Source: Candidatus Omnitrophota bacterium
Lineage (GTDB): Bacteria > Omnitrophota > Gorgyraeia > Gygaellales > Profunditerraquicolaceae
DNA: 64,000 nt
Direction: 5' to 3'
Assembly: GCA_030650425.1 (NCBI GenBank)
Contig: JAUSED010000005.1
Coordinates: forward strand, 78,932 to 142,931
The translations under genes and the position numbers were made by a program. The first letter of the stretch is position 1. Every line of letters starts with the position of its first letter. Shown here one piece after another: positions 12,001-33,000 of the stretch. Below the pieces are notes generated by a model that saw nothing but the letters and a program-made list of their open reading frames with translations, searched no databases and was not told the origin of the DNA.

Positions 12001-15000
12001 CTCTACCCGAAGGCATCCTTCTTTCAGACATCCTCTTTGCTATGAAGCAAAAACTAAGGGTGCCTATAGATCAGCCTTATTATGCTTTGCCTAATCCCGG
12101 AGTTTTAGCCTTAGTTAAGAAAGCCATAGAGTTGAATGAATTACCGCAGTATATAAATTTAGATGATTTAACTTCCAGAGTTAAGCGAAATTCCTTGGCT
12201 CCAAGTGAGTTAAAATTGCTGCAGAAAATTTTGGAAGGTAAAAAAATGAAACAAATACCGCCAAGCGAGTTAGGTTTAAATTCTAGAAATGGAACAGAAG
12301 AAGCCCGCTACTATTTAAAGAATAAAATGGGGCTAAAAGGCTTAAGGCTCAGTAGTTTGGAGATGCGCTGGGAAGCTATGCGTCAGGGGTATTTCTTGAG
12401 GACAGAGTGGTTGGTTTTAACCAAAGAAGGCAGGATCCTTCATCAACCTTGGCCATTAGAGGACACCTTAGTCCTGGTTGTAAAAGCGAGAACCAGATCC
12501 GGGAAACCCGCAGGTTTTTATGTTTTTTATCCAGATGCCTCTCTAAGTCAAAGAAAAAATTTATTCATTAATATCAAACCCTATTCTCGCCAATTTTCCG
12601 AAGAATTTAAAGAGTCTCTTAAGGGAGCCGCGCAATATGTTAAGTCTCAAAGGGGTTCCCTGAAGAAAAGCAAGAATATGAAAACCAAGGCCTATAATCA
12701 GTCTCATGTCTACTTAGCCGGCTATTTTTATCCCAAATACCTGAAAGAAGGGTTTTTTGCTATAGAAGCCTTTAGCCTGACGTTTAAAGAAATTAATTAT
12801 TTTGGCCCGGTAAAAGCCTCTTACCTGAGATTTATTTTAGAGAATTTAGGCTATGACTGTGCCTTCTTAAATGTTATTTTTGAAACCAAAGAATATTATC
12901 AAAAGATAAATTTGGATATTCCGGAATTTTTTAGAGATGGCGAAGCAGCGGGTTTTAAAGGGCTAAAGGCTTTCGAATATTGTTTAGAAGCGATAAAGGA
13001 ACGCGATCGGAAAAGAGAGGTTAACCCGTATATAATTGAAGGGCTTCTTTCACACAGCGGTTTTCGAGTTGGGTATTACGGGACATTATTTACAATTTAT
13101 AAATTTTGGAATAAGCACGGAGTAGATGTTATTGAAGAGTATCAATATGATGCTTATGATCCTTCTGAATTCAAACGCCTCCTTCGCCTCCTGCCGTTTG
13201 AGCTCCCTTCATTAAAACAGCGACAGGATAGAGCTTATTATCTTGAACGTATATTGAAAGAGGCTGGCAGCATTGAGGATGTCATCTATTTGCGGGTTGC
13301 CAATGGAGTAAACGGCGATGAAGAATTTGGAGTTATAGATATACCTCATGAAGCCTCTCAGGAAAAAGCAGTATTTTTAAACGAGATAGCTGAAAAATTA
13401 GGCTCTAAAGCTCACATATTATTGCAAGCAAGGGATTTATTTGGTAGCGAAGAACTTTCTCCCGAAGAAGAAAGAGAGCGTGATTCCTTGATTGAACAGA
13501 TTCAACAATTAGCGGGTATTGATAAGAAAGAGACGAGTGAAAATGATACAAATGGCGCAATTACAAGAAAGACAGATGAGCAAATTGGGATGAAAACATC
13601 AGTATGGACTGAAATTTCCAGCTCGCCGGTGGAAGAGGAAGATGCAAGGCAGCGCGCGGTTCAAGTTACAAAGAGCCTTATTAATGACTTAAACAAAGAT
13701 ATCCTAGAAAAAAATAAAGTCACGAGAGAATCTGTTAGAGTGCAATTTGCCGATAAAACAAAAGACGAGAAAATCGAGCTCAATTTCGGTACAAAATTGT
13801 TAAATTTTGTTTCATTAATGGAGATAGTGAATATTTCCCCAGCTATCAAGGCAAAGGCTTTGATCAATATAGCTAGTAAAGACAGGAAATTCATGTTGAT
13901 TTTTTATGCTCATCTGAGGGTTTATTTCTATGATAGTTATGAAGAGAAATGGTCTTCGGTTGAATTAAACGCGAACAGGCAAAAATTTGGCCCCGAAGCG
14001 CTGTTGAAGGATGAGGCGGTAAAAAGTTTTATAAATAATGTCCTTAGAGAGCGTTTTGCTCAATTAAAGAACTTCAGAAAAATTATTAAAACATATCCTC
14101 TTCAGGATTATAGCTTAAACGGAGGCATAAAGATCAGCCTTGATAATACGATCTTTGACCTTCCCAATAGCAAAGAGACAGGGCTTGGCAGAATTGTGAG
14201 AGAGAAAATAGGGATAGTCAGGGATAAAGGGGCGCGGGGGACGATATTTACCGCCTTGGTTGAAAAGGATTCGTTTGAAAAATCCGTTCCGCGCTATCTT
14301 TTATTTTTGTCCCTTGTCGACACAGTTGAGCTTTATAACCAAGGCGGGCTTATTACTGTATACCCCAAAGACGGAAAGTATTACGGCTATAGCGATGACA
14401 TCTACATCAATACCTTTCTTTTTTATATTGTTTCTAAACAAGAGCCGGCATGGAAGCGTGTAGTTCTGAAAAGAGGGTCGAACAAAATAGTTATCGGAAG
14501 CGATGCTGATGGCGGTTTCATAACACCGCCTAATTCCAATATGCGCTTAGATTCATTGGAATTCCATAAATACGGCCCAACGTATGTGGATGTTAAGAAG
14601 CTGATGGATAGTAAAGGCAATTTTATCGCAGGATTTGCCGGCGTCGGTAAAGGCCAATATTTGGTTAACGGCATAGGATGGCCTTTGAAAGATAAGAAAT
14701 CTCCTGTAATTATTTTTGAGGGCAAATTTTACCTTACTACTGTGGTTAGATGGTTATTGCAAAAGTATGGAGAAATTCCGGTTGCAGAGCCCTTGGAAAA
14801 AGCCATTAAAGCGATACCGTTAAGGATGCTCCAGACTAAAAATACCTTCTATAGATTAGAAAAGACGGCAGCTAAACGTACGGTTTATGATATGGAAACA
14901 GATCGATGGTTGAAGAAAGATGTCTGGAAGGTTTTTCCATATGATCAAGAAGACGAAGGCTTGGGGACATATACACTTAATGAAATTGTTAGTATTCTCG

Positions 15001-18000
15001 TAGAGAATATAAGCAAGTCTAATCCCAAGCATAATCATCTCTTAGATTTACGTCCAGCTATTCTAAGATACCTTCCTTGTGTCAAGGATCAAAAACGGCT
15101 CGAAGCAATCAAAGCTAATCTTAAGTTAGGCATTGGTGAAGTAAAGCAAGAATTAACTGAAGATGAGCTCATGCGAAAATGGATAGGAACCGCTATCCGT
15201 CGTTTAACCGAAGAAAGAGAAATAACCCCGGTTTCTTCTTTTAAATTACATGCCTTATTGGGGATTGAATATCGAGTGGCTACAAAAGCTGCCCGGCGTG
15301 AAATAGAATACTTAGAAGAGATCGGTTATCTCATTAGAAAGAAGGAAGGGAGCAATGAGTATGAGCTAAATAACACCCATTTAATTTTAATTGTAAAATC
15401 GTCGGTCAATTCATCGCCGTTAGCCGAAGGAGTGTCCCTTTGGGGAGCGTCCCCAATTAGAGTGATGGCCGCGGGCATTGCCCTTATCACCTATCTCCAC
15501 CTTGTATTATTTACTCCTGTTTTTGCCGCGGAGCAAGCTTTAAAAGCTCAGCCTCTAACGATTGCTAACCCGGTAGTCTCGCTCCAAAAAGCTATAACGG
15601 AGAAAACAATACAGCAAACAGGACTCGATCAATTAAAAGTAAAGAAGGCCGCTGATGAGATAAATAAGTATATTGAGGAGCATATTAGGAAGCATAAAAA
15701 AATAGATGAGAAAGAAATTAGCTGGATATTAGGAAAGATGGGAGTTAGTTTCGCGATTATTGATAAGATTATTGCTAATAAGGAGATAAAAGAGATTAAA
15801 ATTCTTCCCAAGTCTCCGGGGGAAGAGATAATAACCATAAAAGTGCCCCCTGTTTTGCTTCCCCAACAAACGTATATCGAGCCTGCCAAGCAAACGCCTC
15901 GTGAAGCAAAGGTAAAAAAACCAACGCCGAAACCAGCAGTTTCTATTAAGGGGGAAGCCGCCATAGCTACCATTCCGCCCGGCACAAAACTTTCGTTGGA
16001 TGACAAGAAAATCACGATTAACCACCTCGTAACTTTGACCAGAGGGCCCGCCGGTATAATAATTACCATAGAAATTCCTCAGTGGGATAAAAATAAGCCT
16101 AGCCGCAGTAAGCTACTGAGTACTTTCAGCGGCGCGATGTTTACCTTATTGCCATTTTTAGGTATCGAGACGAGCCAGACGAATATCGATACTTTTGTGA
16201 AGGTGGTAGCAAGCTGGAACGGAAAAGATAATCCTAATAAACTAAGCCCAAGAGAAAAAATTTCCTATCCTATCGGAGAAGAAAGGGCGGCTGATTTACT
16301 TAAGGCCTTAAAGCCTGCCGCGCAAAGAGAAAAAATAATTGAACCTCCGGTTAAACAGGAAGAACCTAAAGAACCTTCGCAGGAGCAGCCTGCGTTAGAA
16401 AAAGAAGAGCAGATACTGCCGGCTGATGAGGTTAAGCAGCTTTTGGATGGGTTGACAAACGACAAGAACAGGGAAAACAAAGAGAAGATTAAAGAGCTGG
16501 TTACAAAAGTGGAGCGGCTTAGCAAAGAAAGCAGGTTTGCGGATGTTCCCCCCGAACTCGTGCAGAACCTTTGGATTGTGGTTGGTAATTATTATCAAAA
16601 CATAGGAGACGCAGAGAACGCTATTCGTGCTTATAAGGAAGCTGTTGAAGTTGGTAAGAAATTAGCCAAGCCATCTACCGGTCCCTATTCTCTTTTGGCA
16701 CAGCTCTATAAATCCCAAGGCCAGAGCTACCTTAAAGAGGAGCTGGAAGCCCTAATTTCATATATTGAACTGGCGAAGAGGCAAGGCATAGCAACGCCTA
16801 CCGAGGAAAAAAGGCGTAAGGAAATAGAAGATCTGCTGCACGGACAAAAAGTTCAGGCTGACGCAGAGCAAATTATGCAATTGCTGACAGGGGCTTCTCA
16901 GGATGTTGAAAGAAGAGATAAGCCGGCTGCTTTGGATAAAGTTAATCAGGCCATAGGAATTATAAAAACAAACAATATGGTTTTCCCCGGCGCATGGCAG
17001 CTTGCCGGGGAGATTTATTATAAGTTAGGCGATCTTAATCAAGCCCGGGATGCTTTCGCAATCTCCGGAGAAACGCCCGAGGCAAAATATGGTTTGTTTT
17101 TGATCGGGTTCAAGCAAGGCAAATTAGACGAGGCCCTGCCTACTTTGGGAGCCGCGATTGAAATGGCTTCAGGAGATAATAAAGACGCCTATCAAAAAGC
17201 ATTGTATGCTGCCGCGGAAGAATTAGAGAAAAGCGGTAAGCCTGAGGCGAAAAAATATTTCGAACAGATTATTACTTTGGATTCCGGAAGAGCGGGAGAT
17301 GCGCAGGTTAGATTAGGGGATATTTATTATCAACAAGGAGATTTTAAGCAGGCCGCTAAGTTTTATGCGGATGCCTTAAAGAGCGATTCTAGCGATGCCC
17401 GAAACACAGCCAAGAGCCAGCTTGCGCGGATTAGCTATAGGAATTTTATGAGGAGTACTCTTCCTATGCTTTTTGTTGGTTTGGTTTTATTCATTATCGC
17501 AGGAATCTCTGCGGGTAGAAAATTCAAAAATAAATTCAAACAAACATTAGAAAAAAGAGGGATACCTGTTAGCCAAGAGGACTTGGAAGATGAAAAATTC
17601 CAGTTAGAGCAAATAATAGCCAAGCCTGAAGCCCAATGGGTCCGTAAAGCCCTGTTTCCTTGGGGAATGATCACCAGCATAAAAAATTCTTTGAGGAGAG
17701 AGAGGATTAGGGAATTAAATAAATATAGATTTGCGCGTGACGCCGGTTGCGGGGAAGAGGAGGTAAAGAGATTCGAGAGATTGATGGTTGTTTACCGGGT
17801 TACAGGAGAAAAAGGATGGGCAAAGATAATCCCCTATCGCGTTATAGGCTTTATAGGAGGCCTGTCTTATGCCGGAAAAGTGATCTTGCCTCCCGGAAAT
17901 CAGCCAGCCGCGAAAATAGTTCAACTTTATCTTGAGATTGAAGGAGTAGGGATAATATGCAGGCCCGCGACCGACTTTTATGTCGATGAGGCTAAGGCAA

Positions 18001-21000
18001 TTGAAGAACTTAAAAGAAGGCAAAACGCATCCGCGATTAAGCCTAGTTTCAGCTCGCCGGTGATACCGCCAGATCGAGGGACACAATGCTTAATTCCGGA
18101 GGAATCCTCTTCTCCAGCTATATTGCCGCCTCTAGCTCCGCAAGAGCCTCTTGTTTATAGCTTTCAAGGCAGAATAGCGTCAAAGACAGAAGCAAATAGG
18201 GCTACGATAATTCGTGATATGACGATCAATGGTGTTTTCGGATTTAAGCTGATTATAGAGGAATATCAACGCGCCAAAAAATATGATCTGCATATCAATG
18301 ATTCCGACAGTTACCCTATTGGCTGGGTAGAATGGGAGTTTAGAGATGAAGTGCCTTATATTATTTTCATCAAGAGAAGGTTTAGCTATAAAGGTAAAGG
18401 ATTATCAGAATTGTTGATGAGGATAACGTTAAAACATATAGAAAAAATTTATGGCCAAAGAGTAGAAGATACAATAGTTGATTCATTTGTTATTTTTTCT
18501 GAATCTAGCATTGCGCGTATAACCGGATTATTACAGCGCCTATGGTTTAGGGCAGCCAAGGAAGATAAAGAAGCGATAAAGTTCCTGAAGTATCTAAAAG
18601 GCCTCCCAGACCCTTTCAGAGTATCTTCAAGTTCTCCTCTGCCCGGAATTCCCGTAACTTCTTCTCCCACAATTTATTCCGAAGATAATCTAAATAATCT
18701 AAGGACACAATCCTTAATTTCAAGTTTTGGAATTAAGTATTGTGTCCCTGGAATTCCTGGAATTCGGGACAATTTAGAAGACAGAATAATCATATATGAT
18801 GTTAACGGAAGAACAAAGATTATGAAAAAAGATATTAGGGCTAGCATAGTTGACATAGATCAGTTGCACCTTACTTCGTCTCAGAATAGATTGAGCGGAG
18901 GCAGATTTGTTGGTTGCACAGCTTGCCTTTTCTGGGATAACAATGCAGGTATCCATGGGTTTCTACATTTATTTCCTGTTCTTACGGCTGCCGAAGATTC
19001 GATCAAAGGCATTATTCCCGCAATAATCAATAATTTTAAGTTTTGGGGAGGGGAAATAAATGATATTGGTTCAGCGCTTATTCTCGCGCAATGTTCACAA
19101 AAAAATATTGCCCAAGTTTTGTTAGAGCAATTAGGAAGAAATACGAAAGTGGTTTTCGAAAATTTAACTGCCGATCCATTCGCAATAAGAAAACAGGAAT
19201 ATATTAATCGTATTAGCATCGAAAGAAATTTATTCTCTATAGACTTGCCTAAAATTCCTAAGCCTTTAATCTTTTCTATGGTTGACAATAAAAATCAATT
19301 CGTTAGTTCGCCTGTTGCTTATATGCCCATATCATCCCGAGGCGCGAGAAGGCACGCGAGATTTTGGCTGTTAATTAGTGTCGCGGAAATGGCGGGATTG
19401 ATGGTTGTGGGTATTTTAAGCCTGAGGGCCATCGGCACAATCGCCTTAATTACTTTGAGCGTATCAGCTATGCTCTATCTTCAGGCAGGTATTTTAAAGA
19501 AATGGGAAGAAATCATTCTGTCTAATCCTATAAGGGCCGGGCCCTTGAAAAAAGTTGCTTATTTCTACCGCTGGTTAGATCGCGTTGAAATTAATCCTGT
19601 CATTCTTGACCAGCAAAAAGGGCTGAAGTTATACTTTTTGTTCCTTCCTCATGAAGTATTCCATAAACTGAATTTAAAGGTCATTAAAACCTTCCGATCA
19701 ATCTTTCCGAGTTACGGGAAGAAGCTATCCGACTCTAAAACTATAGACGCCTTAGATGAATTTGGCGCTTATTTATTAGGCGCCTTTATTCCCGTGATGA
19801 TTTTAACCTTGCCGTTTACCACCTGTATTATCCATGAATCGTATATAAGAAGGGCAGCGCGCACAAATCGTATGCTTGAGGCGCTAAGGGCATTTGACAG
19901 AAAATACGAACAATTGGGCATAGAAGAACTTAATGAGGAAGAGTTTGGAGAATTAGAGCGGGGTATCATTGAAGAGGTTTTAGATGCAAATGTTGATATG
20001 TATTTATGGAATGAGAATGAACCGGTAAATAGCCAGAAAGGCATTGATCTAGACGAAGAGGCGTGGCTGCGCGGTAGTATAGAGCAATATTTTAGCGTCA
20101 ATGATCCTGCCGCAAGGCAGACGATCTTAAATCTTCTTTTAGCAGAAGAGTCAGAATATGAAAGGAAAGGCGGGTTAGGCTGGCGTTGGTTATTTAAATA
20201 TGATTCTTTAGGGAAGCCGGTAGGATTGCTGGGCCTGCATATATTCGATAGAAATAAGCTTCCTCAAGGGGTTATTGCCGGCAGCCTGATTCAGGAAGAG
20301 TCACTATATGGAAAGGGTTATGTAAACGAGATATTGTTCTGGATAACGGATAAGGGAGACAACGGCTTAAGTATATTTAAGATTACAAATTGGCTTAAAA
20401 ATAAGGAAAAGAGGCATCCCAACTACATTATGGATGGGGATACTAATTATTTACTCTTCGCGTTGTCTGAAATTATGCACCGCATAGATGACAAACGGCG
20501 TATTCTTAGGGAGAAGAGCGAATTAAGAGAAGCGGGGATAAAAGATTTGTTAACCGGCGCTTATAACAGAAGGTATTTAGATGAAAGTTTACCCAAGTGG
20601 ATAAGCGAAGCAGAAAAATTTAAGTATTTTTTCAGCCTGTTAATGCTGGACATAGATTTTTTTAAGGGCGTTAATGATACCTACGGCCATCCCGCGGGGG
20701 ATGCCATCTTAAAAGGCATAAGCGAGGAAATTCAACGCACTATGCGAACGGATATATTCAGGCCTTCTGATGTTTCGTTCCGTTACGGAGGGGAGGAGTT
20801 TTGTGTTATTGCAACATCTAATCTTGAAGGGGCAAAGAAGCTGGCTGAAAATATAAGAAAAAATGTAGAAGGGCTTTCTTTTGTGCTGCCGGGAGTTAAA
20901 AAGCCTGTCAAAGTTACGGTAAGCATTGGGGTAACTGAATATAGGCCGGGTGATGATACCCTGGGCGCTTTGATAAAAAGGGCAGACCAGGCCCTATATA

Positions 21001-24000
21001 AAGCAAAAGAAAATGGCAGAAACAGGGTAGAGGCCTTCGCGGCCTCTTTAGTTAGTTCGCCTATTGAAGGCTCGCGCGCGGATTTTTATCGCCCTAAGGC
21101 GGACAATCATTTGCCTTCTATCCCCAAGGAGAGGGAAGAGGCAATTAGGGGAGAGTTAAAGGGAAATCAGCCGATAACTAATATTCAAAGGCAATTTGTT
21201 ATTGATGTATTGAATGAGGCTCAAGGTTTAGCGAGAGAAGACGTAGAAATTGTACGTTCATTGCGGGGAATAGCTTCTATAGAAATACGCGCAGGGCCTA
21301 TGCCTAACCTTTACGGAGCTATTTATGATAATATCTTATATTTAGACACACTATTTTTCCAATCCCGCCAACGAATAGATTTTCTTCTTACCTTAATTTA
21401 TCTAGCCGGAGCCAGGCTTGGCAGAAAACGCAGGCATAATGAAGCATTTGCCAAGAAATACGCGGCAAATATTCCCAATAATAACCAAACTATAGTTAGC
21501 AGGCCGGAGTTATTCTTAAAACCCGAAGAAGTAATCGTATATTTTAAGCGCGAAGGAGAGAACATTGATAAAATCCAAAAGAACTCTATCTGGCTGCAGT
21601 TACCGGATGAATTTAAGGATTTTACAGTATTGACCCCGGCTCAAGCCCTAACTGAAGGGCTTATTATATTAACGAATAATCCGCACCTAAAGGAGCGCCT
21701 GCAAAATAATATAATATCGCAGCCAGAACGCTATAGAGTGTCAATAGAAGGAAAAGTCAGCGAGGAGGATTTACGTTCTATGTTATCAGGCCGGTATGTA
21801 AAAGCGGCAAGAGGAGAGAATAGCGGAGCTAATAATACTGTGCATATGTGGAAGGTAAAGCCGGATAGCCTAGAGGTAAAAGAACGAAATAAGGATAACA
21901 CAATTTTGGAGATTTATTTTTCCAGAAGAGGGGAACGGGAGATTTTGGTATTATTCAAGAATTTCGGTTATTCAGTGAAAAACATAACCCGGACACAAAT
22001 AGGCCTAATTAGCCCGCAGGATTTGAAACCCGGCAGTTATCGCAGGCTAAAATGGAATGAAATACCGGCCATAGCCGGGCTTTATTTCAAAGATACTTTG
22101 TATGAGCGAAACTTAGCGGTAAAAGAGCAAAAATATGCCCTTGAAGAAACGCAGGATTATGAGGTTATCGACTTCTTATTGAATGATAAAAATGTGATAA
22201 GTGATGTTTTCCAGAATATTTTTATGAGGTTTGATTTGGCCGCCGATAACGGAGAGAGAGAAGATCTTTATTACATCAGGGAGGGGGGGTTTAAAAGAGT
22301 TTACAAAATAGTCTTAAGGTCGAAAAATAACATAGAAAGATTCGCGTTTTTCGTTAAGGTTGTTAAGGCTGATGTTGAAATGACCGATTCTGGTTATCGT
22401 TATGACGCGGAGTATGCTAAAAGGCTTGTTGAGACCGCGCGCTTAGCGCGGCCATTAGCGCGGCAGAAGGAGCTTGATTCCTATCCTCCCGTAGGCGGTT
22501 ATTATTGCGTAAAGGGTAAAAACGGAGAAACAAGGATTATTTTTACAGAGGGCATTATCCCCGCGGCAAACGCGCATTTAACCCCGGATAAGAGAAACCA
22601 GATACTGATCAGGACGTATCTTTTATACTATTATATTTTTGGGAAACAAATATTTTTTGCGGATTCTAAACCGGAGAATGTTATTATCCATCATAAATCC
22701 CAGATAGGATATAGAGGCACGCTTATCGATATGGATAATATTATCTTTAGCGAAATATCCCCAGCCCATCTTGTCCATAACCTGCTTTTATACGGTTTCA
22801 AAGCAAGCGACATTATAGAAGCCTTGATTAAATTCTTGGGCAATCAAGAAGCCCACGATTTCTTAAGGTCAATTATGTTTTTAGCCGCGCAGCCGCACAG
22901 CCAGATTATGATTCCTATAGTAGAAGCGTTTAAAGGTTATAGAGATAGAGGGATATTCCAAAAGGAGGTCAGCGGAAGTTTTAAGATTAAGCAGCCTATA
23001 AAAATAGCTATCAATGATAAAGAAGTGTTAGTACCGGAACGGACAACCCTTCTTGAGATTTTAAATGATTGCTACGTGGATATTAATACGATGGATGTTG
23101 AATTAAATGGAAATCTGCTATCGCTGGGCCCCGGGGCCTTATTGACAAGCGAAAAAAGGTCAAAATATAAAAATACTATTCTAATGAGTAACGACAAAAT
23201 AAAATTCTACAGGGAATCAAGAGTTCACAAGGCTATGCCTAATGAGGTTCCTAAATTTTACACCCCTGCTTTAAAAATAAAATTAAAGCTGCTTAAGGAA
23301 ATGGGGTTTGATGGGCAATTAAAGGCCATGTCAAAAGAATTAATTAAGTTTAATTCCGCGGTTATAGATAAGGCCGTTGTAACGCCGGAGGTTAAGTCTT
23401 TTAGGCTCGTCAGCGGTTCATTATTAAATAACTTTATGAGGTATCTCAAAAAACACAGAAACCATCCTTTTGAAGGCTTTAAGCCGGATATAATGCTGAA
23501 GAGGTTTGACGATATAGATTTTGAAAGGCCGCAAGAAAGAGACAAAATGAGGCCGGTGCTTCAAAAATTACTGGCAGGCTTAAAGGATTCAAATAATACA
23601 TTTGATAGGATTTTTAAAATGTCAGCCGAGGAAGCGCGCGGCAGCAGCCCGGCCATCCAGGGCTCAAAACAACAGGTTAAGATTAAGAAGACAAAAGAAT
23701 TTGAGGAAATTTTGAAAGGAATTGTTTCAAGCCCGATTGCTAAAGAAGAGTATTTAGCTGTAGTGGTTGAGAGGGGATTTTTTGTGCCGGAAGGAATAGA
23801 AATGATAGAAAAAAGCCTTGATAAAGGCATATTGCACCCCGGAACGAAGGTGAGTCCGCAAGATTTCGCTGAATTTATGGAAAATTTTCATCTTAATTCA
23901 GGATTAACCGCGGGCTTGAATAAAATCTCTCGGCTAGCCTATTGGCCAATAAGCGAGAGTAAAAAGATATTTTATTTACCCAAAGAGTTATGGATGCGGA

Positions 24001-27000
24001 TTGATGGGGAAGGCCTGAAGAAGGACTTTAATCTTATAGACGACAGCTCGGCTTTAGATTTTGTAGCAAAGGCAATGGAGCTTAGCCGCCTAGCCCCGCG
24101 GATAAAAAATGAAAGCTATAAATTCATTTATGAAGAAGGCGATAGAGATAAGGCGCTTATCTTTGCAGCTAACAATGATAAGGTTATGTCAATAGAATTA
24201 TGGGATAGAAAAGAGGCCGCCATATATGAGCTGGCTATAATTTTTGGTTTAGGCCTTCAAGAAACAAAAGAACATCTGGAAGAGCGGTTTACTCTTGCAA
24301 AGGCTAAAGGTATTAAGCTTGGGGACCTGCCTTTATATGTCCGGCCGGGAAATACTGAATTATTTAAGATTGATAGTAAAAAAGAGGTGGAGGCATTAAG
24401 AGAATTTTATCCGTTGATAGAAATCAGCCCGTTTATCAAGAGAGTGGAGAAATTGTTGGAAGAAAATAAACCTGATCCCCTTATCCGCGGCTCTTCTCCG
24501 GTAAATGAAGGTTTTGGCGCGGTAGTGGCAGGGTTAAGCCGGAATTATTTATTTCCCTTCAACTCGCCTTTGGAGTTTTCCGGCCGCGCCCCTTATTTTA
24601 TTTTGCCGATTACGAAAGCGCTTTCTGTCGCCTCGCCGGTTAAGGGGCATAAGAGTAATTTTGATTTTTATGTAGCGCAGATAGAAAAAATATTGGGGGT
24701 GTCCTTAGATAGATTAACGCAAAAGCAGATAGGCGCAGGCCAGTTAGCCGAATCCTTAAGAAAAAAGTATCGGGCAGTTAACGAAATAAACGAAATAGCT
24801 AATCTTTTGAACGATTTTGGCGCAATTTGTTTAGATCAGGGAAGATATTCTCTTGCCAGAATTCTGTTTGAAGTAGGATTATTTTTAGAAAAGAGGCCGA
24901 AAGAGAGGATGGAATTGTTAGGGATGTTGGCTGCTGTAGATACCGACCAATCTCAAAAGGAAGCCGATGCTCAAAAAAAAGCAGTTTATTTACAAAGAGC
25001 AAAGCAGCGGTTGGAAGAAATATGCGAAACTCTTAATCCTCATCATCCGGAGATACATTTCCAATTAGGATATGTTTCCTATTTACTTGGTGAGTTTAAT
25101 TTAGCGTTCGCTTATTTTCAAACAGCCAAACGCCTTGGCCACCCGCTAGCCGGGTTTAATTTAGTCTCGATCTGCAAAGAACTTGGTGATTTTGACAACG
25201 CCCTTAAGGAGTTTCAAGAAATGATGCAAGCGGGCCTGGTTGATGGGGTTGTTTGTTCTGCTATGCTTGAAGACATAAAGGAACCCGGCGAGTTTAATAG
25301 ATTGCTCAAGGCAGTCTTAAGACAGAATAGCCAAACTGTGCTGTTTGATTTTACCATTGAATTTATCAAAATGGATTTTGATAGGGATAAGGCAAGGGCT
25401 ATCGCCAAGGAGTTTAGCTTAGAGAATGGTATTCAGAGCGCGGCGATCAAATTCCTTATTTTGGAAAGAATACTTGCTTTAAAGGATGTGGAGCTAAAAG
25501 GAAAAATGCTGGAGCAGTGGGAAACGGCGCAGATCCCGGAACGTAAGCCATTCATTGAGGCTTTAAAGGCCTCCTGCAGTGAAGAAAAAATAAATGCTAT
25601 TGCCAAAGCCTCAAGGAAGAAAAAAGATAAGGTTAGCATAAGAGCATTAAAAGAGCCCTGTTTTGCCCTGCTTGCGCTTGTCGCGGTAGGCGTTACGGAT
25701 GAGAAGATAAAGGAATTTGCCGGCTTTTTACTGAAATTCCTCAATGATCCGGTTGTTTCGTCAAACGCGCGCCTGGCGCTTATGCCTTTTACGCAAGCTA
25801 TCTTTGAAGAGGCCGCAGTGATTCTAGAAGAGCATAAAATGCAGGAGCAGGAAGAATCTGAGAAGCGTGACGCAAGAGAAAAGATAAAAGCTTTGTTGGA
25901 TCGGCATATGGCTCTGTATGATATTGTTTACGCGCCTAAGCGCGCGGGTAAAATTGATATAGAACAAGCGGACGAATTAATCTCTCTTACTGAAGAGATT
26001 CTCGCGCTTAATATTCGAGCAGAGTACCTTGATAATGGCGAAAAAGACGCGTTAAATGAGCAGGTGAGCGATATTCTAGAGGCCAAAAAGGCATTGGCAG
26101 AAACAGCGAGCCTTCAAAAAAATAAGGCGTTGGATTACGCCAGGCGTAATAGCCAAGCTTATGAAAAAGCTTATCAGGCCTTTATTGATGCCGGGATCAA
26201 GCCTGATGGTTGGTTTAAGCTAGTTTTGGTTGTGGAAAGGGAAGGTTTTGTTTTTACCTATTATTCCCTTAAGAGCGGAAAGTCTGTAAGAGTGGAGAAT
26301 GTTATAGTCATTTTCGAGGGGCGCGGTAAAGATGAATGCCGGGAGAGTCAAGAGCCTTTTGGCCGTAAGAATATTTACGATATTATTATCTTACAGGAAG
26401 ATAACGGAAAAAGCATATTTGGAGCAGAGATTAAAGAAGGTAAAATCAGTAATGAATTAGTTGGGGGAAATAATATCTATAGAACTTTAACCGAAGGCGC
26501 TGTTTATGCCGATCCCTCAGGAGTCAGGCACCTTATCTATATAGAGGAAGAGTCATCCAAAGCTTACATTTTAGTTGTTGGAAAATTTTCCGATCTCTTA
26601 AGGGTTTATGAAACAGAGAGCGAATATATACCCGCTTACCTTTTGCTACACGAAAGGGGGTTAAATAGAAAAGGCTGGGCGATGAATTTAATGAAAAAAC
26701 TCGTTGATATATTTCAGGGAGAAGGAAGCCTTAAAGTTAACCCGGGATGGCAGCGCGCAAAGCAGGCGCAGGGGATCGTTAAGGGTATGGTAGGTTCAAG
26801 ACAAATAGAAAGAAGGCTTTATTTTGAAGATAACGGCAAAGGAGCGATGTTCCATCTCCTTGATGTAAAAGGCGGGGATGTGGTAGGGATAAATAAATTT
26901 GGATATTTGATTAGTTTTAAGCCAGTGCGGTACTTGGAAAACGCGGAAGATGTTAGCGAATATGAATTATTAGAAAAAAAAGAGATAACCAATGAATGGC

Positions 27001-30000
27001 TTAAGGATAAAATTGAGGAGATTAAAGGAGGCGATTCCTTTAATGGCCGAAGCGCCTCGCCGGTTAACCGAACTAAAATCGAGGCCAAGATTCTAGAATG
27101 GTTTGATGGATTGATCAAGGGATTAAAAAGCCGCGGAGATATTCTGCCAGAAGAAAACTTAATTTTCCCCCAAGGTCATTTAGGTCGATGGGTTAAATTA
27201 TTAGAGTTTGGTTTCTTTGATAATCTTAATACGCTAACAAGAGAAAACATAGCCGGTATTGAGCACAGAATAATAAGAGAACGCGAATTGTATCAGAAAG
27301 TCATAGCGTTGACAGATATACAAAAATACTGTCTTAATCAAGCACAGGATAAGTTTACTTTATTCTTAAAACTGTATAAGAATTTAGTCCCATTTTCGCA
27401 TTGGCCAAAAACGGTGTTTGAGCTAGTAGATAAATATCCAACGATAGGTTTTTTTTATCTTTTATGTTCGGTTAGGGATATAAAAAATGATGTCGATATT
27501 GAAAATGTGGTAAGAATAATAATACATGAGTACGTACATTACTATTCGTTTTATTCGCCAATCATGCAATCTGAGTCATTTGCTGAGGTGTTCGCTGAAA
27601 CGATAGTCGAGATGATTTATCCGGATGCACCCACTCCGAACTATTATGAGGAGGCTAGACCATTGGGGAAGATGTTGTTTGAGATTGTAGGAAAAGAGGC
27701 TTTTCTTGAGGCTAATTTTAGAACCGGCTTATCGGGGCTTATACCTTATTTGGGGCCCAAGGTGGTTAGGATATATGAATTTCTGGAATTGGCCTTAGTT
27801 TGGTCTGGGCTAAACCCTGAGCTTGATTCTGAATTTGTGAGCTTTGTTGATTTCTCAAACTTGCTTAAGCACAGAAATAATGAACAGTTGTTAGACAAGA
27901 TTTGGACGATTTTGATGAGTAAAATGGAGCATATTAATAAATCTCTTCCGATAGGGCGTTTAGAGCGTTTTGATATTATACGAAGATTATTCGAAGTTAT
28001 GCGTTGGGAGTTGGCGGTGTTCAAACCTTCGGGCTCACCGTTAGCGCAGGCTAATCATGATATTCTGACTCTGGTTGTTGGTATCGGCACTGTCAACAAT
28101 ACAAGAGCCGGTTCGGGATTCCTTCCGGTTAATCCCAGCCCTGTATTGAAAAAAATAGAAACGGCCACTCATTCTTCCAGCCCGTTAGATAAAAAGAAAA
28201 AGGAGAGTTTGGATAAGCCGATACGGATAAGGGCATGGAATCCTGATATGGAAAATGTTTTGATAGATTGGATTAAGCGTAATCTGGCGATAGATTCCGC
28301 TCCTTCTGAAGAGGATGTAGGGGTGTTAGCTGCCAAGCTTAATTATAAAAAAAGCGCAGCGGAGCTCAAGGAAAGGCTGGATAAACTGGCTTTTATAAGG
28401 GACAGATATTTAGATTTTACCAATGAAAAATTAAGCGAAAAATTAGGCTGGAATCTAACCGCGGTTAAGAGGCGTTTGCGATGGTTTAAGTATGAGAGAT
28501 GGGCTCCGGAAAAGGAAAGAGAATTATGGGATTTGTTCAAGAGGGGTATAAACGACGCAGGCATTGCCGGCTTAGTAGTTTCTTTCGCCAAACCAAAGGA
28601 AAGATTATTAGAAATGCTAACCCTCTTTAGGGCAATTGACGCAATATATTTTTATCTGGGGCTGAATGCTTTATTGTCTTATCTAAAGATTACCCAATCC
28701 AGCCAGCGCAGGGCTATCCGCAGGTTAATCTCTGAATTAAAATTACACCAATGGACTTTAGAAGAGGAGGCAGAGCTTTTTAGAAGAAACAATGAAGACT
28801 TGTTAGCCTTAGCGGTTGATTTAGGCAAATCCCCATCCTCAATATCAGAGAAACTAAAGGAGCTTAATTTTATTAAGAAATACTACAAGGTATTATTATT
28901 TAAGGATTTAGGCATATTTTTGTGTTATCAGATAGGCGATTCATTAAAAGAGCGGGCTATCGCATGGAAGACGAGTTTTCTGGGTTTAACCGGAGGTGGT
29001 TACAAGTTAAAAAATGACCCCTTAAGAGAGAATGCAAGACGCATTGTGTCTTTATATAAAACCGGAATGCGCCATTTAGTAAAAGGTGAATTCCAGGAAG
29101 CAATAGATAAATGGAGCGAGGCGCTTAGTATCGATGAAGGCATTCCCTATTTGCATAAAAAAATAGACGCAGCCAAGCGCGCGCGCGATGACAGCCTTTA
29201 CCGGGACTTGCTTTTAGGCGAATGTATTAAGAGGGGATACGGAGAATCTATAGAGGCGATTATAAGGTTTAATATGGGGTTGATTAAAAAAATAATAGCG
29301 AGTTACAAAGTTACTAATGCCGCAAGAAAAAATTTGGAAGACGCCGCTATATTTGGCGCCAAGATAGCCGCTTTGAAATACCATCCAGAGCGAGGGGTAA
29401 AGTTTATGACCTTTGCCTGGAATGTGATTAAACATGAAATTAATAAAATATTGATGGAGGATTTCAAGGAAGGAGGAAGAATCGCAATTGAGAAAAAAGA
29501 TTATAAAAAATTATCAGAACTAAAGAAATGGATTAACGGGATAGGCAGATATCCTTCGCTGGAAGAAATAGTTAAGAAACTGAGCGTTTCCAAGGCAACC
29601 GCGGAATTATTTATTTCACTGCTGCGACATAATAACAATCATGTAATGTTAGACGAGAATATTGATGACAGCGATACCAGTTTCCATAATTTTATACCAA
29701 CCAAAGGTACAAACGGCCATGAAATAGGCCCTGAAGAAAAAACAGTTAATTCCGCATCCTTTGCTAAAGTATTAAATGCTCTGGATAACTTAGAGGGGGT
29801 TAACAGCAAGTATAAGGATTTATTTAGGGAGGTTGTTTGCCTTGAGTCGAAGGATACCGCGGATCAGTTCGGTTTTTCAATTGTCGCAAAACAGCGTGGG
29901 ATAAAAAGGCAGACTGTTACTAAGGCGTATTATTTAGTATTGGCAACACTACGTATTAAATTTAATACAGCGACGCATAAGCTTTATTATAGGACAATAG

Positions 30001-33000
30001 AGCAAGTCGCGCGAAAAATTCCGCAGAACGCGGTTTATGACGATTTTATTAAAGGGATTGCAGCAGAATTAGGCATTGAAACCCCGCTTGTCAGGCAGGA
30101 GATTGAATTGTTAAGGATAAAATCCGTGGTGCTTAGTTTTTGCGCGCAATCTTCATCCGCCTCGCCAATAAACGCGGATCTCTATGTTAAGGCAAGGCAG
30201 CGCGTTGAAGACACAAGAAACAGAGGCGGCGGTATAAAAGTAGTGTTTCTATGCAACGGAAACAGATGGCGCAGCGCGGCGATGTACCTTTGGACGGCGC
30301 ATTTAGCGGTAGAAAAATGGATTGCTGATTCTGCCGGGATTTATGCCTGGAGCGCAAAAAAGAACATTGCTTTGTTAGAAAAGGGATTAAGAGATCGATT
30401 TAGAGGCTTAGATGGGCGGCAAGTGAAGTTAATAAGGGCAATAGCCGCAAATGATGAGAGTTGGCTCACGAAAAAAGGATGGTTTAAGAGGGGGTTAAAA
30501 AGAAAAGAAATATATAAATTTTATCACCAGTCTGATTTAGAAGCTTGGAAAGAAAAAATTAACCAGAGCTGTCTGATTGATAAGCAAGAGTATCAAGAAG
30601 CTCTCCAAAAACTAAAGATTATACTCAAGGTTCTTGATGAATACCTGACATACGAGATTCAAGTAGAAGAAAACAGCGAGCTTAAAACTATCGCGCGGAA
30701 ATCCGAAATAAGAGCGGGTATTGTTAATGGATTTTCGTCAAAGGTGGGTACAGCAAGCTTAGTTTATGAAGCTACCCTTGTTGTTGTCTCCGACCGCAAG
30801 GTCAGGGATTTTATCCTAAAGTTTTTCCTCCAAGCCAAGGATAGGGTATTTTTATTTAGCGATTTAGTTCCTAAGAAGCATAAAGATTATGCCTCTAAGC
30901 TTTTTTCTGCTGACGGCGCGGATGTTTTAGACCCGGATAAGAAAGAGATTACAGGGGAATTGATGTTTCAATTGATAGGGGATTGTGTTGAAAAGAGTAT
31001 TATGCCTTTAATTACTCCTTCCGCCTCCAGCCCGATTTTTGATGAGCGCGGCTTCGAAGAGTTTTTGGGCCAGTTGAGAGAGCTCGTTAGTTTAGCTGAG
31101 CAAATCCTTCGGCTGCCATACCGGGACCAGGCAGAAGAGCTTCTTTACGCGCGAAGGGATGAAACATTTAAGCTTTTCGACCCTTCAAAAATTATACAGA
31201 TTCCGGATATTTTGCGTAAAACCAACCTTAACTTAAAAGAAGATTATTTGGATTCGCTGATTAAAATTATTATGGCCTTTCCATCGAACATTGATCCTTT
31301 TTGGAGGGATCAGGCCGCGGAAATCCAGAGGAAGTTAGTTGCCTCAAAACAACAAGACTCCGCATTGAGATTAAAAATAGAGGTTATCAATAACCTATTG
31401 AATGATTACGAGAAAGGCCTGGTTTTTGTAGCTGAGAAGGAGTTTTACAGAATGCTTTTAGGGCAAGGCAGGTTGTATCTTTGGAACAAACTGCTCTCTT
31501 ATGCGGCGCCATTAGGCCAATTGTCAAAAAGAAAATTGGAATTGGGATTATTAATGGCGACTAAACCATTTTTAAATCTTAGAGAAGTCCGAAATATACA
31601 GGAATTGGCAGGAGATTTTGAACTGCAATTCACAGTAATTTTTCCCAAAGGCGCGCGCCATCCTCTTGTCGTCTTCTCCAGAGAATTAATGGAGAGGGCC
31701 GAACAAAGGTTCGTTCCTTTCGCGTTTTCCGTAGGCCATACTCACGGATTAGCGGCGAGCCTTGAAGTAGGCCAAATAGACAAAGAGGCAGCTAGGATTA
31801 TTCAATCCTACGGGGTTTCTTATTTCATTTTAGCTTTTGGGCTCAGGCATATTGAGCTCGCGTGGTTTGAACCGAAGACTATGCAATTCGCCTATGAGCG
31901 TGAGGAGCAAAATAAGATTAGCCGCATCCTTGGCGTATATGGTTTATTAGCCAAGATTAGGCGTACTTCCTCACCCATACACACTCAACCGGCCCTCCTG
32001 AAGCAAACCAGGAGAGCGATGGATTTAACTCAAGAAGAATTAGCCGAAAGACTGGAGAGCTATTCGGAATACGATATTTTCAATTTTGAGCGGGGCGCTG
32101 ACTCAATCCCCATAGGTTTATTTACTAATATTAAAGAAGCAATGGGTTTATTATTGCAAGAACTTAGAGAATCCCTAGGCTATACACCCGCAAAGCTGGC
32201 TAAGGTTATAGGCTATACAGAGGTAGATATTCTGCATTGGGAGAATGCTGAGGCGTGGATCCCTAGCGGCGTATTGAGGGATATCAGAAAACGCGTAATG
32301 CCGGAGCGCCTGAGGCAAATAAGGGAAAAAATGGGGTTGTCGCAAAAAGAATTAGTTAACAGATTAGGATTTTTAAATCTGAGCGCTATTACTTTCTACG
32401 AGATCGGCACGGTAAAAATGCCCTTAGATTTCTTGAATAGGATTAATCAAGAAATGGTTATTTTCTTAAGTGATCTGCAAGAGCTAAGGAAAGATTTAGA
32501 TTATACCAAGGAATCATTAGGCCGAAAAGTTGGTTATAGCCGAACTTCTGTCGCGAAATGGGAAAAAGGCCTGCAAAATGTGCCCAGGGGTTTATTCGCG
32601 AATCTACAAAAAGAGGCCGCCCTATTATTGAAAGCGCTCAGAGAATTTTTGGGGTATAGGGCTGAAAAATTAGCTCGAGAATTAGGAAAGGGTTATACCG
32701 AAGAAGGTATTTTACGTTGGGAGGAAGGTAAGGAGTGGATACCCCGCGGCGTGTTAAAAGAAATTAGGGAGCGATTAATACCTTTACGCTTGAGGCAAAT
32801 AAGGAAAGAGGTGATGAATTTGTTGCAAAAAGAATTTGGGGAGAAAGTGGGGTATTCACAAAATATTAGTATCTACCTTCGAGAGAAAGGCAAAAAAAAG
32901 ATATCCCTACACTTATTAAATAAAACCACGGCATTATTTCCTAACCGTTTGGCCGAATTGCTTAAAGCCATCAACGAGGAGTTAGGATTAAATATTACAG

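Follow-up and report, generated by a model that had tools for sequence, protein, structure and literature searches.

A degenerate pseudouridine-synthase-like domain, probably a pseudoenzyme, at the N-terminus of a kinase cassette in a giant Omnitrophota gene

In this study, we analysed a 64,000-nucleotide stretch of Omnitrophota DNA (hereafter the window) and found that a pseudouridine-synthase-like (PUS-like) domain encoded in it is probably a catalytically dead derivative of RsuA/RluB/RluE enzymes, placed at the N-terminus of a kinase cassette that is shuffled as a unit and maintained by purifying selection for a non-catalytic role. The initial annotation of this DNA had offered two options for the module, a pseudo-enzyme or a decaying passenger, with such modules either serving as scaffold or spacer or decaying while selected for an open frame only. 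Our data support the first option, since the fold is intact and the catalytic Asp and its Arg/Lys partner are gone in the window and in all relatives found. The decaying-passenger option is largely refuted.

The host reading frame and the cassette

The ORF that hosts the domain starts at nt 3 of the window and runs for 21,332 codons without a stop, being open past both window ends. The remaining frames contain 800–2000 stops, against none in the host frame, and no overlapping ORF of at least 60 aa was found in any other frame between nt 20102 and 23257. More than 15 distinct Pfam families occur along the ORF, including HATPase_c, HD_4/RelA_SpoT, GerE, TPR, GGDEF, HTH_31/HTH_3, Aca2, GNAT, Radical_SAM, Peptidase_M48, two PrmA-like methyltransferases and LOG, and a simple hydropathy scan revealed 16 candidate TM helices. 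Such a very long multi-domain ORF with TM helices is of the Omnitrophota giant type. The motifs GGEEF (GGDEF module) and PGGLGTLDE (LOG module) noted earlier are present at nt 20787 and nt 53487, respectively; the “GH13 fragment” reported together with them is without Pfam support.

The module had been described as free-standing, a framing that our data do not sustain, as the PUS-like domain opens a conserved kinase cassette of four domains. The order within the cassette is PUS-like domain, helical linker, kinase-like domain, beta-grasp and four-helix bundle, and a single AF2 model of nt 21480–23702 reached a pLDDT of 89.0 and a pTM of 0.75. The features are as follows:

3..63998, + strand: host ORF, part of a giant multi-domain gene (stop count, Pfam)
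21501..23642, + strand: cassette of ~715 aa, ORF aa 7167-7880 (segment shared with relatives; AF2)
21519..22088, + strand: RsuA/RluB-type pseudouridine-synthase fold without catalytic residues (limits set from the AF2 model)
21633..21644, + strand: T-P-A-Q at the position of motif II G-R-L-D, with Gln55 (21642-21644) in place of the catalytic Asp (four alignments)
21732..21734, + strand: Tyr85, the motif IIa aromatic residue, retained; “ERY” for canonical “KxY”, with the Lys lost (alignment)
21924..21953, + strand: degenerate motif III, R-R-G-E-R-E-I-L-V-L for canonical E-G-x-N-R-Q-I-R-R-M (alignments including hhalign)
22089..22250, + strand: helical linker of three helices, from the PUS-like to the kinase-like domain (AF2 secondary structure, conservation)
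22251..22949, + strand: protein-kinase-like domain with intact catalytic motifs (conserved motifs)
22281-22304, + strand: kinase G-loop, EGGFKRVY
22356-22358, + strand: kinase beta3 Lys293
22662-22679, + strand: kinase catalytic loop, D-S-K-P-E-N
22728-22739, + strand: kinase D-M-D-N
22989..23216, + strand: ThiS/ubiquitin-like beta-grasp (strand/helix pattern in the model, weak ThiS matches)
23265..23666, + strand: helical tail forming a four-helix bundle in the model, less conserved than any other cassette part (AF2)

The linker holds the conserved pattern “EExxDxxxIxxLLxD...F..IF.R.DL”, and the G-loop, the beta3 Lys, D-x-K-x-x-N and D-x-D-N of the kinase-like domain are invariant among cassettes. 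The ThiS matches of the beta-grasp are weak (TIGR01683, E 0.018; PDB 2cu3, E 0.51; Pfam ThiS in one of the 11 members). Outside the PUS part, neither Pfam nor NCBIfam returned a significant family for the cassette. Among PDB sequences the family profile matched no kinase, the BFVD matches were only generic giant-virus Ser/Thr kinases, and PADLOC-DB yielded no match at E<=1 for either the window cassette or the complete protein P0001.

The pseudouridine-synthase fold and its active site

An RsuA/RluB-like module had initially been placed at nt 21525-22070, limits that nearly match those of the modelled domain, and the peptides quoted in its support were found in the window's single open frame. 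The likeness is borne out far above chance by TIGR00093, by a profile search of PDB sequences and by hhalign. The NCBIfam model TIGR00093 matched the domain with an E value of 1.1e-14 and 54.5 bits, which is below its curated cutoff of 109.3. The family profile retrieved RluF (3e-10), RluB (3.4e-9), RluE (5.6e-9) and RsuA (4.7e-8) among PDB sequences, and hhalign against 55 canonical sequences gave a probability of 99.8% and an E value of 1.3e-29 over 181 columns. The Pfam model PF00849 reached E 0.12 and 13.1 bits, under its cutoff of 26.8, and therefore the domain would be missed by this model alone. In the AF2 model of the cassette, pLDDT exceeds 90 across most of the domain; a prediction of the module alone without an alignment had a pLDDT of 34 and was unusable. 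Based on these results, the domain belongs to the pseudouridine-synthase catalytic-domain fold.

The replacement of GRLD by TPAQA, from which loss of the catalytic Asp had first been proposed, was confirmed by profile-HMM and other alignments. T52-P53-A54-Q55 falls on G-R-L-D in four independent alignments (MAFFT, HMMER against RluF, the span of the NCBIfam RluE model, and hhalign), and their concordance led us to reject a misalignment of motif II. Across the 55 canonical sequences, conservation of G, R, L and D is 100% at each of the four positions, and the exact GRLD occurs in 125 of the 150 best library matches. No GRLD-like motif was found elsewhere in the 21,332-aa ORF. A Pfam and motif scan of the same ORF found no second, intact PUS, so that redundancy of the PUS-like copy with an intact one in the same ORF was rejected.

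Motif III is degenerate as well. Its basic position, occupied by Arg in 87% of the 55 canonical sequences, is taken by Leu156 (nt 21945-21947) in the window. This loss of the motif III base was a point absent from the initial annotation. The “HP” motif and the second-shell Asp were also lost. The Asp is the sole universally conserved residue of PUS active sites and is essential, and it is salt-bridged by the Arg/Lys of motif III (PMC3973310). This basic partner is also catalytic, the R181K variant of TruB being 2500-fold slower (PMC3973310). Judging from its sequence, the PUS-like domain is predicted to be unable to make pseudouridine.

The same degenerate state was found throughout the family. 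Across the 15 copies of the cassette, the residues at the Asp column are Q, R, R, R, R, N, D, R, A, A, S, H, K, H and H, and G-R-L-D is found in none of them. At the basic position of motif III, the 11 copies of the audit have L, A, I, G, M, P or F, and four further copies have an acidic or hydrophobic residue; none of the 15 has a basic residue there. By contrast, the PUS modules of other long multi-domain proteins (P0030 and P0122) have kept both GRLD and GKNRQIRRM and score above the Pfam threshold.

Could the domain still be an enzyme, either a PUS with a relocated acid or a new catalyst that uses the Arg/His/Gln at the former Asp position together with the Glu of the motif III “xE(R/K)EI”? 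We regard this as improbable. The motif II loop of the window (T-P-A-Q-A-L-T) has no acidic residue, and no acidic residue is conserved family-wide in this loop among the 15 copies, on which grounds a relocated catalytic Asp was rejected. Such an acid is nevertheless present in some members: an Asp lies at +1 from the aligned column in P0005, P0009, P0011 and L007, and in P0006 it is at the column itself, as T-P-L-D, in a copy that lacks the motif III base. In these members a relocated acid is conceivable. The cleft does not look random either, since R, K, H, Q or N occupies the Asp column in 10 of the 15 copies and nine of those ten keep the motif III Glu, a pattern resembling a charge swap. 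Furthermore, Tyr85 is found without exception in the cassettes and in the 55 canonical sequences; the motif IIa Tyr stacks on the target base. The substitutions in the cleft vary by subgroup (R, H, A or S), though, which fits a structural constraint better than a catalytic one. Catalytic residues of pseudoenzymes can migrate, according to reviews (PMC10211241), but no known PUS family does without the Asp, and its basic partner is itself catalytic (PMC3973310).

Conservation, selection and spread of the cassette

Fourteen further copies of the Asp-less domain, 20-42% identical across it, were found in long proteins, most of which come from Omnitrophota MAGs. Conservation among copies is near-gapless across ~190 residues, and the family-invariant P15, E16, K23, G26, S36, P42, G60, Y85 and W192 are all kept in the window. 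Averaged over pairs of 11 copies, identity is 32% for the PUS-like domain, the same as for the linker and the beta-grasp, 44% for the kinase-like domain and ~15% for the unrelated flanks. When scored against a profile of the other ten (leave-one-out), the window copy reached 190 bits, and its ratio of PUS to kinase score, 0.70, lies inside the family range of 0.50-0.80.

Selection was measured in sister lineages, the window copy being assessed by conservation. In an unsaturated pair with a dS of 0.29, dN/dS of the PUS-like domain was 0.22 (95% bootstrap 0.13-0.38). Values of 0.24 and 0.14 were obtained in two older pairs; the pairs P0001/P0004 and P0009/P0011 have reached or passed saturation of dS, so that pN/pS alone is usable. 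The neighbouring kinase domain gave similar dN/dS values, 0.17 in the unsaturated pair and 0.155. Uniform strong purifying selection over all modules had been named in advance as an observation that would speak against decay, and purifying selection on the PUS-like module was observed in the relatives. An intact fold, loss of essential residues and purifying selection, which together characterise a pseudoenzyme, were thus all found.

These data make it very improbable that the module lost its function on fusion into the giant gene and persists only because the protein would be cut short by a stop or frameshift. The degenerate state is common to 14 other copies over deep divergence, almost without indels, and dN/dS (0.14-0.24) is significantly below 1. 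Moreover, the domain is conserved in complete genes of 1329 aa and 3754 aa, in which a constraint on the frame only would be weak; the family-profile score of the window copy is normal, and most of the domain is modelled with pLDDT >90. Decay would account for the joint loss of GRLD, the motif III base and “HP” and for a Pfam score of just 13 bits, and relaxed selection on single modules is conceivable in a huge mosaic ORF.

The cassette is the sole ORF segment common to P0001-P0013 and loci L001-L012, with 27-42% identity. P0002 and P0003 have the cassette alone in common (68% identity), and the same was found for L004 and L011. Among its hosts are giant-gene fragments as well as complete genes encoding 1329 aa (L001) and 3754 aa (L002). 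The cassette has probably entered otherwise unrelated long and giant proteins, chiefly those of Omnitrophota, as a single block, by insertion or shuffling. The family is small, with 11 representatives at E<=1e-10 among 1.84 billion, and its named sources are four to five “Candidatus Omnitrophota” MAGs and two labelled Planctomycetales/Planctomycetia. No relative more than ~42% identical to the window copy was found in the protein collection or in genome and metagenome contigs, and window-specific peptides had no match in these contigs. A word-index protein search with the module or, within 8000 candidates, with the 11-cassette alignment returned no match, which reflects the sensitivity limit of that search, as P0001-P0013 are in the collection.

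Some “broken” enzyme modules in giant Omnitrophota genes would thus be conserved parts of blocks that move between giants and not debris. As modules belong to larger mobile units, active-site audits should be carried out per conserved cassette and not per Pfam domain. The domain would represent a new pseudoenzyme family within the pseudouridine-synthase superfamily, in a new architecture (dead PUS fold, kinase-like domain, beta-grasp and four-helix bundle) which escapes Pfam, NCBIfam and PADLOC. By itself the finding opens no long-standing question; a unit of ~715 aa with a natural stand-alone version of 1329 aa (P0001) does provide a tractable entry to proteins that are otherwise too large.

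Possible roles and comparison with known systems

The RsuA family (RluB, RluF, RsuA and RluE) comprises free enzymes of 180-290 aa, whereas the PUS-like domain is embedded in a kinase cassette and differs from them by GRLD to TPAQ and by motif III Arg/Lys to Leu. An N-terminal S4 domain is found in RsuA, RluB and RluF, and RluE is without it. Canonical matches carry the S4 region “RLxKxLA..G..SRR..E.LI..G.V.VNG”; no S4 RNA-binding domain was found in the cassettes, and Pfam was empty in the 166 aa upstream of the window copy. In addition, the net positive charge of the PUS-like domains is about one-third of the usual, with an average pI of 9.0 and a net charge of +4.6, compared with +12.8 in canonical domains, and it is 0 in P0009 and P0011. 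The lower positive charge and the missing S4 domain argue against canonical rRNA binding. On the other hand, R171, R188 and K23, basic residues conserved in canonical enzymes, are kept together with Y85, which suggests a residual binding potential.

The low charge and the absence of S4 would also be expected if the domain were a ligand-free rigid scaffold, serving as a dimerisation or packing element for the kinase, beta-grasp and helical unit. The position of the family-specific invariants P15, E16, S36, W38 and W192, at the terminal edges of the domain and adjoining the linker, points in the same direction, and the pTM of the cassette model suggests a compact multi-domain assembly. We consider this explanation unlikely, although less so than retained catalysis. 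A spacer would not need the kept canonical basic residues and the stacking Tyr, and the kinase core exists without the domain in L013, a 500-aa stand-alone relative with linker, kinase and beta-grasp whose match begins at the linker. The lack of a PUS-like domain in this protein indicates that the domain is accessory to a kinase/beta-grasp core, and it suggests an added specificity function over a structural need.

Most likely, the PUS-like domain serves the kinase unit in a binding or regulatory capacity, without catalysis. Its remodelled former RNA cleft may recognise a ligand or substrate, with RNA or a nucleotide-like ligand as the natural candidate; alternatively, the domain may offer a docking surface by which the kinase is positioned or gated. 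A more specific and rather doubtful version is that the cassette is an unrecognised bacterial signalling unit in which the dead PUS senses an RNA- or nucleotide-derived ligand and turns on the kinase, with the beta-grasp and the bundle as scaffold. If this sensor reading were true, the RNA-sensing kinase PKR would be a functional parallel. The complete 1329-aa copy has genes for Peptidase_M78, XRE-HTH, an N6/N4 methyltransferase, a PLD nuclease and an SNF2 helicase as neighbours, a setting that would fit a conflict or defence role.

Selection on a fold after catalytic loss, in a domain joined to an active signalling domain, is a situation similar to that of the signalling pseudoenzymes treated in PMC5106787 and PMC10211241. 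As for the kinase-like domain, no sequence-level membership in the small-molecule and atypical kinases of the APH, choline kinase, CotS-YtaA, Bud32 or RIO families was found in Pfam, NCBIfam or PDB sequences, and its catalytic loop “DSKPEN” reads as Ser/Thr protein kinase-like. The cassette shares with TBK1/IKK the order kinase, beta-grasp/ubiquitin-like domain and helical part, and Foldseek aligned it to TBK1 structures over 640-700 columns (E 4e-8). Membership in the TBK1/IKK type was rejected, as a kinase domain nearest to IKK with TBK1-like packing was not found.

Neither West-Roberts et al. (2023) nor Nielsen & Lui (2026) mentions a PUS domain or the cassette. The window ORF is like the Omnitrophota giants that they describe (the “Archaeovorin” type of West-Roberts et al. 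2023 and the “multi-enzyme” class of Nielsen & Lui 2026) in its size and scattered TM helices, and it resembles the “multi-enzyme” class with a signal-transduction domain module (Nielsen & Lui 2026). The commonest domains of these giants, namely HATPase_c, Radical_SAM, TPR, Lysine_decarbox, GGDEF, GNAT, methyltransferase and HD, match those of the ORF.

Loss of the active site in an RsuA-type domain

The initial annotation placed at 21525-22070 a module that resembles RsuA/RluB-type pseudouridine synthases and lacks the catalytic Asp, reading it as a pseudo-enzyme or a decaying passenger. The peptides it quoted are present and in frame, and its coordinates essentially match the span derived from our model (nt 21519-22088, here called the PUS-like domain). 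Pfam alone was insufficient to call the domain (PF00849, E 0.12, 13 bits). TIGR00093, the RsuA-family pseudouridine synthase model, matched it with E 1.1e-14, and a phmmer search with the domain returned 389 matches among 1.84 billion representatives, nearly all of them ordinary RsuA-family enzymes of 230-450 aa. The profile of the family retrieved RluF (3e-10), RluB (3.4e-9), RluE (5.6e-9) and RsuA (4.7e-8) from the PDB sequences, and hhalign against 55 canonical sequences gave a probability of 99.8% (E 1.3e-29, 181 columns). Judged by these comparisons, the case for homology to RsuA-family synthases is solid. The domain nevertheless lacks both the GRLD motif and the motif III base of those enzymes and, since it fails these defining catalytic features, we do not class it as a pseudouridine synthase.

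The missing Asp, for which a profile-HMM alignment had initially been proposed as a check, was borne out by four independent alignments (MAFFT, HMMER against RluF, the RluE model and hhalign), T52-P53-A54-Q55 (nt 21633-21644) falling on the G-R-L-D of motif II. Each of these four residues is invariant in 55/55 canonical sequences, 125 of the 150 top-scoring library matches contain GRLD exactly, and no GRLD-like motif was found elsewhere in the 21,332-aa ORF. The basic residue of motif III, Arg in 87% of canonical sequences, is Leu156 (nt 21945) in the window, where "NN" also stands for "HP", Glu for the Lys of "KxY" and Leu for the "GRLDxD" second-shell Asp; Tyr85, the stacking residue, is retained along with structural residues. 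The Asp is the sole universally conserved, essential active-site residue across pseudouridine synthases, and the Arg/Lys salt-bridged to it is also catalytic, TruB R181K being 2500-fold slower (PMC3973310). Because the essential Asp and this catalytic partner are both missing, the sequence argues strongly that the domain cannot make pseudouridine.

Across the 15 copies of the domain collected, the residues aligned with the catalytic Asp are Q,R,R,R,R,N,D,R,A,A,S,H,K,H,H; G-R-L-D is found in none of them (0/15), the motif III site is non-basic in every one (15/15), and the loss is therefore older than the divergence of the family. R, K, H, Q or N occupies the old Asp column (window nt 21642) in 10/15 copies, and 9 of those 10 keep a conserved motif III Glu, "xE(R/K)EI" (window nt 21933-21941), a pattern that may represent a charge-swapped stand-in for the Asp-Arg salt bridge.

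A kinase cassette under purifying selection

None of the eleven best library matches is an ordinary enzyme: they comprise ten long proteins (1249-6429 aa), in which the whole module matched at 22-43% identity, and P0007, a 168-aa fragment. These proteins, together with P0030 and P0122, two long multi-domain proteins with RsuA-type modules, were compared by BLAST with the ORF of the window. The only segment common to the ten long proteins and the ORF was aa 7167-7880 (nt ~21501-23642), and each fetched DNA locus likewise shares this segment only. The homologues P0002 and P0003 are 68% identical over it and unrelated outside; the same holds for loci L004 and L011, related in the cassette only. 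It follows that the PUS-like domain makes up the N-terminal ~190 residues of a larger conserved unit, a cassette of ~715 aa that is completed, according to the model and fold searches, by a three-helix linker, a kinase-like domain, a ThiS/ubiquitin-like beta-grasp domain (ThiS matches are weak, E 0.018) and a four-helix bundle. The catalytic set of the kinase-like domain (G-loop EGGFKRVY, Lys293, D-S-K-P-E-N, D-M-D-N) is invariant in 11/11 aligned cassettes, so that it is apparently competent. The non-PUS part had no recognised match in Pfam, NCBIfam or PADLOC.

The ~80 aa that directly precede the cassette (window 21255-21500, + strand, no Pfam match) are 42% identical to P0007, a TARA Oceans fragment that runs on into the PUS-like domain, and the match of P0004 likewise begins ~37 aa early; an extra N-terminal extension may be common to some copies.

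The alignment of the PUS-like domain across the family is nearly gap-free, and all nine invariant columns (P15, E16, K23, G26, S36, P42, G60, Y85, W192) are present in the window (9/9).

Mean pairwise identity by region, 11 aligned cassettes
PUS-like domain: 32%
Linker: 32%
Kinase-like domain: 44%
Beta-grasp: 32%
Helical tail: 22%

Flanks outside the cassette show ~15-20% identity (one pair). For three pairs of relatives dN/dS was estimated by the Nei-Gojobori method, the window copy being judged by profile score instead.

dN/dS in pairs of relatives
L004/L011: PUS-like domain 0.22 (bootstrap 95% 0.13-0.38), dS 0.29, unsaturated; kinase domain 0.17
P0002/P0003: PUS-like domain 0.24; kinase domain 0.155
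P0001/P0004: PUS-like domain 0.14, dS near saturation

The window copy, for which no close relative was found, scores 190 bits against a profile of the ten other copies, and its PUS/kinase score ratio, 0.70, lies within the family range of 0.50-0.80. A decaying passenger or spacer is rejected because of the conserved columns, the purifying selection found in relatives (dN/dS 0.14-0.24), the kind of evidence that the initial annotation had itself named as counting against its reading, and the normal profile score of the window copy. Of the initial interpretation, the feature and its missing Asp are real, and the reading of decay does not hold.

Pseudoenzymes are a well-known phenomenon (PMC10211241). 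Our literature searches turned up no account of the cassette, nor of any kinase fusion with a dead domain of RsuA type. In P0030 (aa 3036-3187) and P0122 (aa 3364-3522) the RsuA-type modules retain both GRLD and GKNRQIRRM and clear the Pfam threshold (81 and 68 bits), beside DnaJ/WD40/Radical_SAM/thioredoxin and HEAT/Peptidase_M50 domains, respectively, so live and dead PUS modules both occur in long multi-domain proteins.

Distribution and possible role

A word-indexed homologue search with the module or the 11-cassette alignment gave no match, and an index-free HMMER scan recovered P0001-P0013, which are representatives in the same collection; for divergent families, a word-index "no match" is no proof that homologues are absent. 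After two further scans the copies numbered 15 in all. Named sources are "Candidatus Omnitrophota bacterium", except for two MAGs labelled Planctomycetales/Planctomycetia, and the IMG auto-annotation of one homologue reads "RsuA-like enzyme/phosphotransferase...". Two host genes are complete.

Complete cassette-bearing genes and a stand-alone relative
L001 10001-13990: P0001 gene, complete, 1329 aa, cassette-bearing
L002 10001-21265: P0003 gene, complete, 3754 aa, cassette-bearing, also with CheR
L013 1036-2538: stand-alone relative ORF, 500 aa, on a 78-kb metagenome contig

The P0001 gene, whose protein has no PADLOC match, neighbours Peptidase_M78, XRE-type HTH, N6_N4 methyltransferase, PLDc_2 (PLD-nuclease) and SNF2-helicase genes, surroundings that resemble a mobile element or a defence island. 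The P0003 gene sits within a CODH/ACS (Wood-Ljungdahl) cluster with a Y1 transposase directly downstream (L002 21501-22205), a setting that hints at arrival by insertion. The L013 ORF has the linker, the kinase-like domain (catalytic loop D-P-N-N-R-N) and the beta-grasp, and lacks the helical tail and the PUS-like domain, in place of which its N-terminus is helical. The kinase and beta-grasp thus form the core, to which the PUS-like domain is an accessory, and the existence of this core without it suggests that it adds specificity, not structure.

Our data show a PUS domain that is folded, under selection and catalytically disarmed, and that is tied, both covalently and in its evolution, to a kinase that looks competent. 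We consider it quite probable that it is a selected non-catalytic domain of the kinase cassette, which would serve the kinase through ligand or substrate recognition or regulation; either a binding or sensor role or a pure scaffold is possible. Residual binding is favoured by the retention of K23, R171, R188 and Tyr85, by the basic average character of the domain (pI 9.0, net charge +4.6) and by the occurrence of the core without it in L013. Against canonical rRNA binding, on the other hand, the S4 domain is absent, the net charge amounts to roughly one third of that of canonical domains (+12.8), and the domain is neutral in two copies.

The giant host gene

Features of the window, all on the + strand
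nt 3-63998: giant ORF, 21,332 codons, zero stops, continuing past both window edges
nt 1083-1742: "GH13 fragment"
nt ~32300-32900: XRE-type HTH run (HTH_31, HTH_3, HTH_19), then Aca2/YdiL-like region
nt 49971-50246: PrmA/L11-methyltransferase-like SAM-binding module (E 8e-12)
nt 59412-59702: second such module (E 5e-16)

The other five frames of the window hold 800-2000 stops each, and across nt 20102-23257 none of them has an ORF of at least 60 aa. The Pfam chain of the ORF includes HATPase_c, HD_4/RelA_SpoT, GerE, TPR, GGDEF, HTH_31/HTH_3, Aca2, GNAT, Radical_SAM, Peptidase_M48, two PrmA-like methyltransferases and LOG, which are unrelated to each other and of cytoplasmic type (more than 15 distinct families); a simple hydropathy scan gave 16 candidate transmembrane helices. 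HATPase_c, Radical_SAM, TPR, Lysine_decarbox, GGDEF, GNAT, methyltransferase and HD are among the commonest domains of the "multi-enzyme" giant proteins known from Omnitrophota (10.1101/2023.11.21.568195; 10.64898/2026.06.07.730766), and the ORF bears the signature of these giants in length, domain mix and transmembrane helices. Neither of these two papers mentions a pseudouridine-synthase domain.

The "GH13 fragment" has "FAENHDERP", similar to the alpha-amylase region IV motif, and no Pfam match at E<=1. The two PrmA-like modules may be an internal duplication. The XRE-HTH and Aca2/YdiL-like content, inside the giant ORF, is atypical for a membrane-anchored giant protein.
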